Source: Patescibacteria group bacterium
GTDB lineage: Bacteria; Patescibacteriota; Minisyncoccia; Phycocordibacterales; Phycocordibacteraceae
Assembly: GCA_029260935.1 (NCBI GenBank)
Contig: JAJDCJ010000005.1
Coordinates: forward strand, 16,073-80,072
Reading direction: 5' to 3'
Length of the DNA stretch: 64,000 bases
The notes under the pieces were generated by a model that was given only the letters and a program-made list of their open reading frames with translations, had not been told where the DNA came from and searched no databases. Each line of letters begins with the position of its first letter. The first letter of the stretch is position 1. The translations under genes and the position numbers were made by a program. Positions 55,856-64,000 of the stretch are shown here, in pieces.

Positions 55856-56794
55856 ATGATAGACCGAAAATCACTCGGTATTCTTGCAGTTGCGACACTG
55901 ATTGCGCTCGGTGCCATAGGCCTTGCCATCGTCTTTGCATCTCAGAAACCACAAGATGCTACTGTAGCCGAAATTTCGGTTGTAGAAAATCGCCTCGCAG
56001 ATGCTGTTTCCGCGTCAGTTGTGGGCGGAAACCAAAACCAAGATCCTGACGAAGACGGTCTTTTAAACTGGAGAGAAACTTTGTGGGGCACTGACCCTCA
56101 TAACCCAGACACTGATGGAGATGGTGTTTCAGATGGAGAAGAAGTTGCACTCGGTGCTAACCCACTCAAACACGGCACTGAATTAATTTCAGAAAATGAC
56201 ACATACGAGGCTCCTCGTGGACTCGCTCCAACCGATGCACTGGCGCGCGAGATATTTATTGGCTACGCAAATGCAAAACAAGATGGAGAGTTTAGTGAAG
56301 AAGAAATAAGTGTTGCTTTTGCCGATATTCTTGCGCGGAAAATACAAGAAGGTACTGAAGTGAAAAAAGTCTATACTCTTTCTGATATTTTAATTGATCC
56401 ACAACTTTCAATTGAAGAGTATGAACGCGCATTTTCTTCAATTATCAGAAAAACAACTGCTGTGCGCGAGTATGAATTAAATGTCTTTTCACGTGCAGTG
56501 ACTGATGGACAATCAAGCGAACTTACAAAACTCATCACCAGTGCTCTTATATACGAGACCGTGCGTGATGAATTGTTGACACTCAACGTTCCTGAAAGAG
56601 TCGCCCGCGAACACCTGGAAGCAATAAATACTCTCTCAGGACTTGCCAGCGCGACCACAAACTTGAGCGCCTGGAGCGGTGATCCATTTGACGCGCTTGC
56701 TTTGGTTAATAGTTTTTCTAATGCTGAAGATGATTTTTCAGATGGACTACTTGGTCTCTACTCATTAGTGCGTGCCATTGAGCAACAATCATGA
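55856..56794 (+). CDS. Membrane-anchored protein with thrombospondin-type-3-like Ca-binding Asp-rich repeats, hypothetical
   Basis: N-terminal TM helix and the motifs DPDEDGLLNWRE...DPHNPDTDGDGVSDGEE. It is the first gene of the T4SS-like cluster. Confidence 0.45.
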   Translation: MIDRKSLGILAVATLIALGAIGLAIVFASQKPQDATVAEISVVENRLADAVSASVVGGNQNQDPDEDGLLNWRETLWGTDPHNPDTDGDGVSDGEEVALGANPLKHGTELISENDTYEAPRGLAPTDALAREIFIGYANAKQDGEFSEEEISVAFADILARKIQEGTEVKKVYTLSDILIDPQLSIEEYERAFSSIIRKTTAVREYELNVFSRAVTDGQSSELTKLITSALIYETVRDELLTLNVPERVAREHLEAINTLSGLASATTNLSAWSGDPFDALALVNSFSNAEDDFSDGLLGLYSLVRAIEQQS

Positions 56795-58308
56795 AAAAAA
56801 CACTCTTTACACTTCTGATGATTACCTTTCTTGCAACTCCCGTGCAAGCAGTACACGCGTTAGGGGCAGGAGCTATTGGCTGTGGTGCTGCCTCAGTTGC
56901 AGTTGGCGCAGGATCAGCTGCAGCGTCCCGCGCCATTGGTGCTGAAATTCCCGTGTCCGACCGTGGAACCAGAAAATCACTTTCAGCACTTGAGTCAAAA
57001 GAGTGTATTTTAGACGGCCTTACCGTGGTACTACGCGAAGCGTTGATTGCATCAATTACCCAGAGCATTGTTGACTGGATTAACAACGGCTTTGAAGGGG
57101 GGCCAACTTTTGTAACTGACCTTAGTGCTTTTTTGGGAGAAGTTGCAGACAACACGTCACTTGATTTTATTCACGGTACCGAGTTGGGCTTTTTGTGTAG
57201 CCCGTTTGAACTTGAAGTGCGTTTGGCGCTTTCCGTTGCTCGTCAGCCATTTAGAGAACATATACGGTGCTCTCTTGGAGATGTGACCGACAACATTGAC
57301 GGGTTCTTGTCCGGCGACTTCTCACAAGGCGGGTGGCCCGCGTGGTTTAGGGTACACACATCACTACAAAACCATCCGTACGGCGCCTACTACTTGGCGC
57401 AAGGGGAGTTGAACACACGTCTTGATAGAAGACAACAAGTGGAATTAGAAAAACTTAATTATGGTCAAGGATTTTTATCAAAAGAAAGGTGTTCTACAAA
57501 CCACCTTGGCGAAAGTAGATGTGAAATCGTCACTCCTGGCGCCGTTATCAATGAACAACTCAACAACACACTCTCTTCAGGAACAAGGCAGTTAGAATTA
57601 GCTGACGAGATCGATGAAATTATTGGCGCCTTAATTGCCCAGCTTGCGCAACAAACATTCACTTCGCTTGACGGACTTCGTGGGCTTTCAAGTCGCTCAT
57701 CGTCTTCTTCGCGACGAGTAGACCAGGGGGATAGAAATGGAAATTTTCGCGATACTCCAGCTTCATACCTTGAAGCGATAGCTGACGAAAGTGACTCGTC
57801 GTCAGTTGGCGCTGGGCGAACTATTCTTCTTTCTGATATTGATACGGCAATTGATCTGGAAGAAGAGTACCAAGACGTTCTTAATGGCATCATTGCCAAC
57901 TTGGCTGAGGCAGAAGAGAAGTTTGGTGCGCTCTACCAGTGTTTTGTTGATGTTGCTAACGTGCCGGGTGGTTCAGTAGGCATTAGTTCAACTGCAAACG
58001 ATGGCATCCTCTCAGTGCAAGAGGGTGGTGTAACCACAACACAAATAGAGCGTTATGAACAAGATCGTGAAATTTCAACTAATACTATTGGTAAACTCTT
58101 GGCGGCACGCGCTGAAACCAGAGATGCTCGTAGTGTGAGCGACCTCAATGACGCAGCCGACTCATACGATGCTATTCTTGCCTCAGGTGTTGTGCACTCA
58201 AGTGCTGACATCATTTTCCTCTCGGAAGATTTTGAAGCACAAAAAGGCGCACTTGAAGCGCTCAACAATGAAGCACATGTTGACTTGCGTGAGTGTAGAC
58301 AATTTTAA
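56791..58308 (+). CDS. Secreted protein of the T4SS-like cluster, hypothetical
   Basis: Signal peptide (MKKTLFTLLMITFLATPVQA) and a 480-aa soluble region. It is translationally coupled to its neighbours. Confidence 0.45.
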   Translation: MKKTLFTLLMITFLATPVQAVHALGAGAIGCGAASVAVGAGSAAASRAIGAEIPVSDRGTRKSLSALESKECILDGLTVVLREALIASITQSIVDWINNGFEGGPTFVTDLSAFLGEVADNTSLDFIHGTELGFLCSPFELEVRLALSVARQPFREHIRCSLGDVTDNIDGFLSGDFSQGGWPAWFRVHTSLQNHPYGAYYLAQGELNTRLDRRQQVELEKLNYGQGFLSKERCSTNHLGESRCEIVTPGAVINEQLNNTLSSGTRQLELADEIDEIIGALIAQLAQQTFTSLDGLRGLSSRSSSSSRRVDQGDRNGNFRDTPASYLEAIADESDSSSVGAGRTILLSDIDTAIDLEEEYQDVLNGIIANLAEAEEKFGALYQCFVDVANVPGGSVGISSTANDGILSVQEGGVTTTQIERYEQDREISTNTIGKLLAARAETRDARSVSDLNDAADSYDAILASGVVHSSADIIFLSEDFEAQKGALEALNNEAHVDLRECRQF

Positions 58309-58311
58309 TAT

Positions 58312-62177: not shown

Positions 62178-62363
62178 GAGGAGGAATGAGTGAGGTGATA
62201 GGTATAAGATGTGAGGTAATAGGTAAGAACATATGGAGTTAGAAACCGATGTCTTTTACTATACCCAGGTCAATGTATTGTTACATGAAGTAATATGCGT
62301 GTTGAATGTTATGATTTCTAAAGAGAGCAGTGCTAGTGCCTAGATGTCTAGCACCTATCTAAT

Positions 62364-64000
62364 ATGGGAATTTTTGATTTTATAAAAAAAGACAAGAAAG
62401 AAGCAGAGTTAACTCCGTTTCTGCCGAAAGATATTTATGAGGCGGCAAAACTTGATTTCGCCGATATTATTGCGCCGAGTGCGCTTAAAATAACACCGCG
62501 CGAAATGAATCTTGGGGATAAACTTGCGCGCACTTTTTACGTGATCTCCTACCCCCGTTTCCTATCTGACAGTTGGTTCTCACCAATTATCAACTTGGAC
62601 AAAGTATTTGATGTTGCAATTTACGTGCACCCCATTGATACCGCCTCTGTCCTGCGCAAGTTCCAGAAAAAAGTCGCTGAAATTCAAAGCCAGGTTATAT
62701 CACGTGAGGAGAAGGGACTGGTACGCGACCCAGTGCTTGATACCGCCTACCGCGACATTGAAGACTTGCGCGACAAGCTACAACAGGCGCAAGAACGTGT
62801 GTTTGATGTAGGTCTGTACATAACTATTTATGGCGACAATTCAGATGAGCTGGATAAAGCGGAAGCTGAAATCCGTTCAATTTTGGATGCAAAACTCGTC
62901 TATGTAAAACCAGCGCTCTTTCAACAAGAGCAGGGGTACAAAAGCGTTATTCCAACCGGGAAAGATTTGTTGGGGGTACATTCAAAACTAAACTCCTCAC
63001 CTCTCTCTTCTTTGTTTCCTTTCCTTTCATTTGACCTGACGTCCGATAGAGGAATTCTCTATGGCATTAACCGCCACAACGCCTCATTAATTCTTTTTGA
63101 CCGTTTTAGTCTTGAAAACTACAACTCAGTGACCTTTGCAAAGTCAGGGTCTGGAAAAAGTTACGCTACCAAACTTGAAATTCTCCGCTCTCTTATGTTT
63201 GACGTTGAGGTGTTGGTGATTGACCCTGAAAGCGAATATGAATACCTGGCAAACGCAGTAGGGGGGCGCTTCTTTAACATTTCACTCTCCTCAGAACACC
63301 ACATCAATCCTTTTGATTTACCAACGCCAAGAGAAGACGAGTCACCACAAGATATTTTGCGCAGTAACATCGTCACCTTGGTAGGGCTGTTCCGCATTAT
63401 GCTCGGTGGCCTTACACCAGAGGAGGACGCTATTATTGACAGAGCAATTACTGAAACCTACGCGCTCAAAGACATTAGTGGTGAAGCTGATTTTTCAAAC
63501 ATGGAACCCCCACTTCTTTCTGACTTTGAGTTAGTGCTTGCCGGCATGGAAGGTTCCGAATCTTTGGTACAGCGTCTTTCAAAATACACTAAAGGCACAT
63601 GGGCTGGCTTTATTAACCGACCCACGAACGTTGATATCAATAAAAAGTTCGTCGCCTTTTCAGTGCGTGACATGGAAGACGACTTGAAACCGGTTGCGAT
63701 GTATATTATTACCCACTACATCTGGAACGCAGTGCGTAAAAACTTACGCAAACGCCTTCTGGTTATTGACGAGGCGTGGTGGATGATGCGCTCTGAAGAC
63801 ACTGCGTCATTTATCTTTTCTATGGCAAAACGCGGACGAAAATATTTCTTGGGGCTTGCTACCGTAACTCAGGACGTACAAGATTTCCTTAACTCACCCT
63901 ACGGACTTCCGCTCATCACCAACTCATCTATTCAGCTGTTGTTAAAACAATCACCAACCTCAATTGACGCAGTACAAAAAACATTTAACTTAACCGAGGA
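62364..64000 (+). CDS. VirB4/TraE-like type IV secretion ATPase (3' partial; runs off the window)
   Basis: Walker A FAKSGSGKSYAT, Walker B LVIDEAWWM, and a CagE/TrbE/VirB-type architecture. It is not in the ORF track because no stop falls within the window. Confidence 0.8.
   Translation, partial: MGIFDFIKKDKKEAELTPFLPKDIYEAAKLDFADIIAPSALKITPREMNLGDKLARTFYVISYPRFLSDSWFSPIINLDKVFDVAIYVHPIDTASVLRKFQKKVAEIQSQVISREEKGLVRDPVLDTAYRDIEDLRDKLQQAQERVFDVGLYITIYGDNSDELDKAEAEIRSILDAKLVYVKPALFQQEQGYKSVIPTGKDLLGVHSKLNSSPLSSLFPFLSFDLTSDRGILYGINRHNASLILFDRFSLENYNSVTFAKSGSGKSYATKLEILRSLMFDVEVLVIDPESEYEYLANAVGGRFFNISLSSEHHINPFDLPTPREDESPQDILRSNIVTLVGLFRIMLGGLTPEEDAIIDRAITETYALKDISGEADFSNMEPPLLSDFELVLAGMEGSESLVQRLSKYTKGTWAGFINRPTNVDINKKFVAFSVRDMEDDLKPVAMYIITHYIWNAVRKNLRKRLLVIDEAWWMMRSEDTASFIFSMAKRGRKYFLGLATVTQDVQDFLNSPYGLPLITNSSIQLLLKQSPTSIDAVQKTFNLTE

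Follow-up and report, generated by a model that had tools for sequence, protein, structure and literature searches.

The stretch of DNA analysed here (hereafter the window) comprises 64,000 nucleotides from a Patescibacteria group bacterium (assembly GCA_029260935.1, contig JAJDCJ010000005.1) and ends in a gene cluster related to type IV secretion systems (T4SSs). Open reading frame (ORF) calling places seven co-directional genes of the + strand in window positions 55856-64000, separated in order by gaps of -4, 3, 8, 52, 2 and 186 bp. The block opens with a bitopic membrane protein of 312 aa carrying TSP3 repeats (55856-56794), followed by a secreted or anchored helical protein of 505 aa (56791-58308) and a polytopic membrane protein of 704 aa resembling the ‘extended’ form of VirB6 (58312-60426). 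Then come a cytoplasmic protein of 203 aa with a DPYRE C-terminus (60435-61046), a two-helix membrane protein of the PrgI/VirB3 type (61099-61527; alternative GTG start at 61081) and a TrsD-like protein of 215 aa (61530-62177; alternative GTG start at 61524). A non-coding spacer of 186 bp (62178-62363) separates the latter from the gene of a VirB4-family ATPase, of which residues 1-545 lie within the window (62364-64000). On the upstream side, the nearest housekeeping gene is rsmA (54454-55350). An earlier note, made from the sequence alone, had listed the TSP3, secreted, VirB6-like, PrgI/VirB3-like and VirB4-like members; its named members stand, but it passed over the 203-aa and TrsD-like genes and the exact start of virB4 at 62364.

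The window closes inside virB4. A public contig (L001, 13,993 bp), which encodes the 704-aa protein, is identical to the window in 12,690 of 12,690 shared bases and allows the sequence to be read as far as window-equivalent position 65303. On this contig the virB4 stop falls at window-equivalent 64172, giving an ATPase of 602 aa in full. It is followed by a secreted Ig-like protein of 320 aa and by the first 28 codons of a further gene (MNPLL...GEFVPL, L001 13908-13991).

The ATPase matches Pfam P-loop_TraG (E 6.9e-22) together with AAA_10, and presents a Walker A motif GSGKS at 63147-63161 and a Walker B motif DEAWW at 63768-63782, so that a + strand cluster ending in a VirB4-family ATPase, as read in the earlier note, is confirmed. 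With 368.6 bits, the full-length protein exceeds the cutoff of 325 set for the NCBIfam model conju_CD1110. However, it spans only positions 178-733 of the 752 in this profile. The TrsD-like protein matches the complementary region: it aligns with positions 5-119 of conju_CD1110 and with positions 97-245 of VirB4_plasma (E 8.9e-10), both far below the curated cutoffs, and with the NCBIfam model TrsD (E 7.2e-7, 29 bits for a cutoff of 200). A precomputed Pfam match to TraC-like is also recorded. A family profile built from 40 orthologues of the 215-aa protein is collinear with residues 21-128 and 134-194 of a single-chain VirB4 of 783 aa from a Clostridium perfringens plasmid, and the 602-aa ATPase aligns with the same plasmid protein from about residue 193 onward. 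This relationship is seen by profiles only, as BLASTP of the TrsD-like protein against the window VirB4 and against the plasmid VirB4 returned nothing; a profile search of the TrsD-like family against PDB sequences was uninformative. Because the 215-aa and 602-aa proteins cover complementary parts of VirB4, the former is a separately encoded N-terminal domain. On these profile alignments VirB4 is split in two genes, a TrsD-like N-terminal domain and a 602-aa remainder, like the TrsD/TrsE pair of pGO1.

The two core membrane proteins are supported to different degrees. The PrgI-like protein, already described as having two helices, matches Pfam PrgI (E 2e-8, 35.1 bits for a gathering cutoff of 27) and forms a hydrophobic hairpin at residues 19-65. 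The 704-aa protein combines a transmembrane domain of about 380 aa with a charged C-terminal tail of about 320 aa. It has no Pfam or NCBIfam match, and a PDB-sequence profile search was uninformative. Among its orthologues, TrbL/VirB6 is the sole recurring Pfam family, matched by 7 of 46. An AlphaFold2 model of residues 1-463 was computed from a 23-sequence alignment (pLDDT 75, pTM 0.71), and Foldseek ranked the TrwI/VirB6 chains of the R388 T4SS at the top for it, with probabilities of 0.99-1.00 and E values of 0.02-0.05. The description as a VirB6-like polytopic protein therefore holds at the level of the predicted fold. An ‘extended VirB6’ type has been described in a review (PMC12857230), and the 704-aa protein with its charged tail fits this type.

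The conservation of the locus was examined in a one-genome-per-species scan which yielded 80 loci whose VirB4 is 75-91% identical to the window protein. ORFs were called in all loci, orthologues were collected in three rounds of profile search for each cluster protein, and only loci with enough flanking sequence were counted. At the positions expected from the window, orthologues of the TSP3 protein were found in 52 of 57 loci, of the 505-aa protein in 57/58, of the VirB6-like protein in 59/60, of the 203-aa protein in 64/67, of PrgI in 69/70 and of the TrsD-like protein in 76/76, with VirB4 itself in 80/80. Beyond virB4 the order continues with the 320-aa Ig-like protein (74/75), a VirB2-like pilin two genes after virB4 (63/68) and a possibly TolB-like protein of 409 aa (63/64). 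Next come jag-yidC-rnpA-rpmH, with YidC on the opposite strand (60/61), and dnaA-dnaN; in 58 of 61 relatives DnaA is encoded at a distance of about 6.5 kb beyond virB4. The complete succession of uvrD, rsmA, the cluster, jag-yidC-rnpA-rpmH, dnaA and dnaN can be followed on a 719-kb scaffold whose VirB4 shares 91% identity with that of the window.

The synteny across candidate phyla radiation genomes that the earlier note proposed to check is thus found for ten genes, each of which keeps its place in the order in 91-100% of these loci, a degree of conservation well above what chance would produce. All ten are co-directional, save for PrgI in one locus. This exception occurs in a close relative (L002:7866-9226), where an extra membrane protein of 308 aa is inserted and the PrgI gene is inverted; it is the sole change of core orientation in 76 loci. 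Because the gene order and the flanks are kept across related loci, the block is, judged from these sequence comparisons, a stable chromosomal segment next to the replication origin, with ten genes between rsmA and jag-yidC-rnpA-rpmH/dnaA. The earlier reading of the cluster was right for its core, and the split of VirB4 with the TrsD-like gene as well as the continuation to a VirB2-like pilin and the origin had gone unrecognised. Its remark that several members have no recognisable homologues does not stand: orthologues occur in most related Paceibacteria genomes, though in no curated family.

The rates at which these proteins diverge differ widely. The median identity to the window protein among the related loci is 77% for VirB4 and 62% for the TrsD-like protein, compared with 52% and 51% for the flanking housekeeping proteins UvrD and RsmA. 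PrgI reaches 50%. The TSP3, 505-aa, VirB6-like, 203-aa and 320-aa proteins range from 26 to 32% (27% for TSP3). This gradient from a constrained cytoplasmic motor to fast-evolving envelope parts fits the vertical inheritance of an important host-facing machine.

In the pilin family, Pfam T4SS_pilin is matched by 39 of the 40 members and TrbC/VirB2 by 8; in the genome under study, the putative pilin gene is represented by the first 28 codons, read on L001. The pilin-like proteins of Paceibacteria are unusually long, with a median of 273 aa and a maximum of 580 aa, and some carry extra modules: an SLT-like domain, VanY, a second tandem pilin domain or, by eye, a subtilase-like region. Long or fused genes of this kind are located at L002:12893-13537, L020:13882-15303, L053:13517-16360, L029:13293-15032 and L064:12914-14161 (contig labels of the related loci). 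Pilins with wall-degrading enzymes could act in place of the missing VirB1. A LysM/M23 peptidase of the window (49263-50312, - strand) was considered as a VirB1 substitute and set aside: unrelated genes intervene, and only 7 related loci were found to have such a gene in the 10 kb upstream.

Five syntenic proteins of the block remain without annotation in terms of known T4SS subunits. The TSP3 protein has a hydrophobic N-terminus (residues 5-31) and matches TSP3_bac, a family of calcium-binding TSP3 repeats, at residues 85-105 (E 2.7e-11). The 505-aa protein begins with a hydrophobic segment (residues 5-24), and the designations of these two products as a TSP3-repeat membrane protein and a secreted protein are thereby borne out. 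For the 505-aa protein no Pfam or NCBIfam match was obtained and the PDB-sequence profile search was uninformative. Its AlphaFold2 model (pLDDT 74, pTM 0.49) consists mostly of long helices. A VirB5-like fold was sought in this protein, whose gene directly precedes that of the VirB6-like protein; Foldseek against the PDB returned generic helical bundles only (E at least 0.05), which does not amount to a rejection of such a fold. A sub-threshold DUF4141 match, seen in a few relatives and confined to a short N-terminal stretch, was set aside. Some orthologues contain F5/8-type-C, Ig-like, fn3 or InlB-repeat domains. The carbohydrate-binding and Ig-like modules in several of these sequences suggest surface exposure of the family, and the 505-aa protein is probably an extracellular structural or adhesive part.

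The 203-aa protein is built from a helical N-terminal domain, a linker rich in Pro, Thr and Glu, and the C-terminal DPYRE. No transmembrane segment and no family match were detected in it, and the PDB-sequence profile search was again uninformative. Across 40 orthologues D196, P197, Y198 and E200 never vary, and R199 is kept in at least 90% of the sequences. The motif is thus maintained although the protein is otherwise poorly conserved (median identity 26%). From this pattern, the DPYRE tail looks like a docking peptide. Lastly, two families encoded past virB4 complete the set. Three Ig/PKD-like β-sandwich domains are apparent in the 320-aa family from weak partial Pfam and PDB matches and from the repeat pattern of the alignment. 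The 409-aa family gives weak TolB and β-propeller signals only (E 0.006 and weaker), by which the protein is possibly TolB-like.

A survey of 3,035 genomes places the VirB4 proteins of Patescibacteria in a monophyletic clade nested in MPF-FATA (Quinonero-Coronel et al. 2025, Microb Genom, PMC12102498). In our searches at least 8000 scored candidates match the window VirB4 at E values of 1e-10 or lower. Among the 120 matches listed, identities range from 81 to 100% and the named entries are Patescibacteria, Paceibacteria or Kaiserbacteria. Informative titles among the 80 loci point to Kaiser-, Campbell-, Taylor-, Nomura-, Zambryski- and Adlerbacteria, all of the Paceibacteria type. Many ENA records with a Paceibacteria-type VirB4 (75-80% identity; L006, L007, L013 and others) are titled ‘uncultured Candidatus Saccharibacteria bacterium’ and look like mislabels. 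Among plasmid proteins, the best homologues reach 29-35% identity; every one of the 15 listed comes from monoderm Bacillota or Actinomycetota, and those among them with informative annotation are of the CD1110 type. By similarity, and not by a tree, the window protein would be assigned to the Patescibacteria clade nested in MPF-FATA.

Taken as a whole, the locus very probably encodes a Patescibacteria machine derived from the conjugation machinery of monoderm MPF-FATA systems which, with no relaxase or type IV coupling protein (T4CP) at the locus, serves host contact and not conjugation. The role in host interaction is well supported; it is the leading published view, and is neither new nor demonstrated. 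The earlier note had proposed a DNA-uptake or host-attachment apparatus: this non-conjugative reading agrees with the hypothesis already published (PMC12102498, PMC10633639, PMC12857230), and its DNA-uptake part in particular is weakened by the comEC result discussed below.

A working model may be drawn by analogy with homologous systems. Hexamers of VirB4, docked at the membrane via PrgI and the TrsD-like domain, would extract pilin from the membrane. The pilin would then polymerise on the VirB6-like platform into a pilus or conduit crossing the cell wall. The fast-evolving secreted proteins (TSP3, 505-aa helical, triple Ig-like and possibly TolB-like) would form the wall-spanning and host-contacting parts. 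Macromolecules would be moved to or from the host cell in support of the host-dependent lifestyle, the model implying neither a direction nor a substrate. More speculatively, the five un-annotated proteins, the 203-aa one included, might be true structural subunits which, with pilins bearing enzyme or adhesin domains, replace VirB8, VirB1, VirB5 and the adhesin. The resulting wall-spanning architecture would resemble no T4SS of solved structure and might serve as a conduit for import from the host. We regard this extension of the model as doubtful, if worth entertaining.

The evidence bears on three other functions. That the cluster is an ordinary integrated conjugative or mobilisable element of the Gram-positive type, transferring its own DNA, might be argued from a VirB4 above the cutoff of a ‘conjugal transfer ATPase’ model (CD1110), from a PrgI-VirB4 order resembling that of the Clostridium perfringens plasmid and from the presence in the window of two recombinases. 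However, a scan of 30 further ORFs of the window (length 206-729 aa; every ORF of at least 338 aa outside the cluster is among them) found no relaxase or coupling protein, in agreement with the earlier note, which had seen none in the window. These ORFs comprise housekeeping genes, a ComEC-RecJ pair, type IV pilus genes and the two recombinases; none of those scanned contains a relaxase domain, and no oriT search was made. Relaxase and T4CP are likewise absent among the cluster proteins, downstream in L001, in the relatives and within 10 kb downstream in L002, and no MobC was found in the cluster, the 30 ORFs or downstream. The comparator plasmid carries MobC, relaxase and T4CP in the 7 kb that precede virB4. 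In the window, VirB4 is the sole T4SS ATPase, the other P-loop secretion ATPase being PilB (T2SSE) of the type IV pilus (15134-16870). A relaxase or T4CP gene immediately downstream had been named as the mark of a conjugative element; that position holds the Ig-like protein and the pilin start and, in relatives, the putative TolB-like protein, jag-yidC-rnpA-rpmH and dnaA-dnaN. No integrase adjoins the cluster: the nearest recombinases lie 18-29 kb away with housekeeping genes in between. Furthermore, the same housekeeping flanks (uvrD-rsmA upstream, yidC-dnaA downstream) are kept in about 60 species, VirB4 is more conserved than UvrD and RsmA, and no shift in base composition is seen (GC 0.436 in the cluster, 0.444 in the rest of the window). 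Because no relaxase, coupling protein or adjacent integrase was found in the sequence covered, the cluster is not an integrated conjugative element; conjugative transfer of its own DNA is already largely refuted, and we give it next to no credence.

A machine importing host or environmental DNA into a nucleotide-auxotrophic cell, comparable to Helicobacter ComB or archaeal Ced, would suit a lineage without nucleotide synthesis, and the authors of the survey favour the import of DNA or other macromolecules (PMC12102498). ComEC, RecJ, a ComM-like protein and type IV pilus genes are found elsewhere in the window, and the CedB and CedD models match VirB4 weakly and locally. Yet these matches reach 32.7 bits for a cutoff of 700 (CedB, P-loop region only) and 14 bits for a cutoff of 600 (CedD), and neither a DNA-binding or nuclease component nor CedA-like or ComB-like partners were recognised in the block. 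In Southlakia epibionticum, deletion of comEC ends competence and not growth, while the T4SS is essential (PMC10633639, PMC12857230). Because comEC is dispensable for the growth of Saccharibacteria and the T4SS is not, ComEC-coupled DNA uptake is unlikely as the essential role, and we judge DNA import in general to be improbable. Somewhat less remote, though still unlikely as the specific function, is an exporter of protein effectors or a contact-dependent toxin injector aimed at the host bacterium, which overlaps with the host-contact reading. The Saccharibacteria system ‘may instead export proteins’ (Wang et al., PMC10633639), and T4SSs independent of a coupling protein exist, for instance Bordetella Ptl and Brucella VirB (PMC12102498). 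Fast-evolving envelope parts are moreover expected for host-facing proteins. In contrast, most effector translocators need a T4CP, which is not present here, and nothing within the block or beside it was recognised as a candidate effector, an immunity gene or a chaperone.

Several considerations also count against the host-contact machine that we prefer. The roles of five of the ten block proteins are guesses from location and domain type. The VirB6-like call relies on a predicted structure (pLDDT 75) with Foldseek E values of 0.02-0.3, and no VirB8-like or VirB1-like component was identified in the cluster. Of the pilin gene in this genome only 28 codons are visible, and the proximity of dnaA is taken from relatives. 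A gene for a coupling protein could lie in another part of the genome: according to the 2025 survey, VirD4-like genes occur in most Patescibacteria genomes, usually far from virB4 (PMC12102498). Finally, the evidence for essentiality is carried over from another class, Saccharimonadia, whose system has a pilin array and a lysozyme.

Some further features of the window accompany the cluster. The 186-bp spacer before virB4 (62178-62363) contains a GTGCTAG...CTAGCAC inverted repeat and stops in all three forward frames. Its length is unusual, the gap between the TrsD-like gene and virB4 being at most 24 bp in 63 of the 79 other loci compared. A 71-nt segment matches L003:8838-8899 at 72%, and no second copy of the spacer was found elsewhere in the window. 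An internal promoter or a small RNA might reside there; a promoter and terminator scan gave a site count no higher than in shuffled sequence. Between rsmA and the TSP3 gene, the opposite strand encodes a signal-peptide protein of 124 aa (55355-55729, - strand) without family assignment, for which 18 related loci have an orthologue in the corresponding place. Upstream of uvrD lies an acidic, proline-rich ORF of 558 aa (50609-52285) without a Pfam match, which appears lineage-specific because none of the 80 related loci contains an equivalent. At a greater distance, the gene of a large serine recombinase (36346-37980, - strand) runs into the 3′ end of tRNA-Gly(tcc) (36285-36356), which may mark an integrated element, and an XerC/D-like tyrosine recombinase is encoded at 26772-27692. 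Neither recombinase is close to the T4SS cluster.

In this phylum, attachment and DNA uptake are usually credited to the competence and type IV pilus machinery. A separate gene set of this kind occupies positions 3605-20500 of the window on the - strand. It includes ComEC (3605-5125), RecJ (5534-7318), a pilin-like protein of 590 aa with an N-methylation motif (11902-13674), PilC/T2SSF (13689-14906), PilB/T2SSE (at the coordinates given above, - strand) and a ComM-like Mg-chelatase ATPase (19028-20500).

Patescibacteria represent a large share of bacterial diversity and apparently live off other microbes, and the T4SS is among the few machines that nearly all of them keep. The present locus is a clean Paceibacteria example which could guide structural or genetic studies as soon as a Paceibacteria co-culture becomes amenable to manipulation. 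To the published picture it adds the synteny of five un-annotated neighbours, a quantitative account of the VirB4 split, the conservation gradient from motor to envelope and the multi-domain pilins. These additions are modest refinements and leave the classification unchanged.

The locus may be compared with plasmid transfer machineries and with the systems of other Patescibacteria. In the Trs system of pGO1/pSK41 (TrsC-TrsD-TrsE), TrsD is likewise a small protein of its own; it is related to the N-terminus of VirB4, and its gene adjoins that of the VirB4 homologue. However, the protein studied here scores far under the TrsD cutoff, and pGO1 Trs is conjugative, with a relaxase and a T4CP, and has no VirB6 homologue according to PMC12102498. 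The MPF-FATA systems of Bacillota (CTn2/CD1110 type, C. perfringens pSXP-169_2) share the VirB4 family, a PrgI immediately upstream of VirB4 and a monoderm architecture without an outer-membrane core. In pSXP-169_2, VirB4 is a single chain of 783 aa as opposed to 215 + 602 aa here, and plasmid homologues show the low identities given above. This plasmid carries MobC and a relaxase 5-7 kb from virB4, a VirD4-like T4CP, an SLT hydrolase directly after virB4, a topoisomerase III and a sortase, all of them absent here, and has no annotated VirB2-like pilin.

Another known system is the T4SS of S. epibionticum ML1 (SEML1_0006-0019), which was described as unusual and closest to Gram-positive conjugation systems, with pilins and without a recognisable relaxase or coupling protein, and whose essentiality for epibiotic growth was shown by transposon sequencing (Wang et al. 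2023, Cell, PMC10633639). It shares with our cluster the order VirB6-like protein, PrgI, a small protein in the TrsD position and VirB4. It is likewise origin-proximal (genome positions about 5-24 kb), includes T4SS_pilin genes and lacks a recognisable relaxase or T4CP. In contrast, it belongs to the class Saccharimonadia and has six tandem pilins, where Paceibacteria usually have one longer multi-domain pilin. Two very large VirB6-like proteins, an NTF2-like protein and a lysozyme are present there and were not found here, and essentiality has been shown there only.

The closest match is the T4SS of the Patescibacteria clade as surveyed in PMC12102498. TrsD, PrgI/VirB3, VirB6 and VirB2-like pilins are widespread near virB4 in these genomes; the first three are found here, with the TrsD homologue as a neighbour of VirB4, together with a putative VirB2-like pilin. 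Relaxases were reported in only 103 of the surveyed genomes, and both systems lack a relaxase and a T4CP nearby. The published Paceibacteria systems lie near dnaA, dnaN, rnpA, rpmH and ksgA; the chromosomal position of our cluster, near ksgA/rsmA and dnaA-dnaN-rnpA-rpmH, is the same. The proposal made there, an import of host DNA or other macromolecules, is repeated in a 2025 review (PMC12857230). A term search of the survey returned no mention of TSP3, nor were the un-annotated neighbours found discussed in the sections consulted. The wide spacer between the trsD-like gene and virB4 is an unusual feature of this genome. There is no essential difference; in the present loci, the five un-annotated neighbours prove as syntenic as the core genes. 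The locus is almost certainly a further instance of the already published Patescibacteria T4SS, and not a new system.

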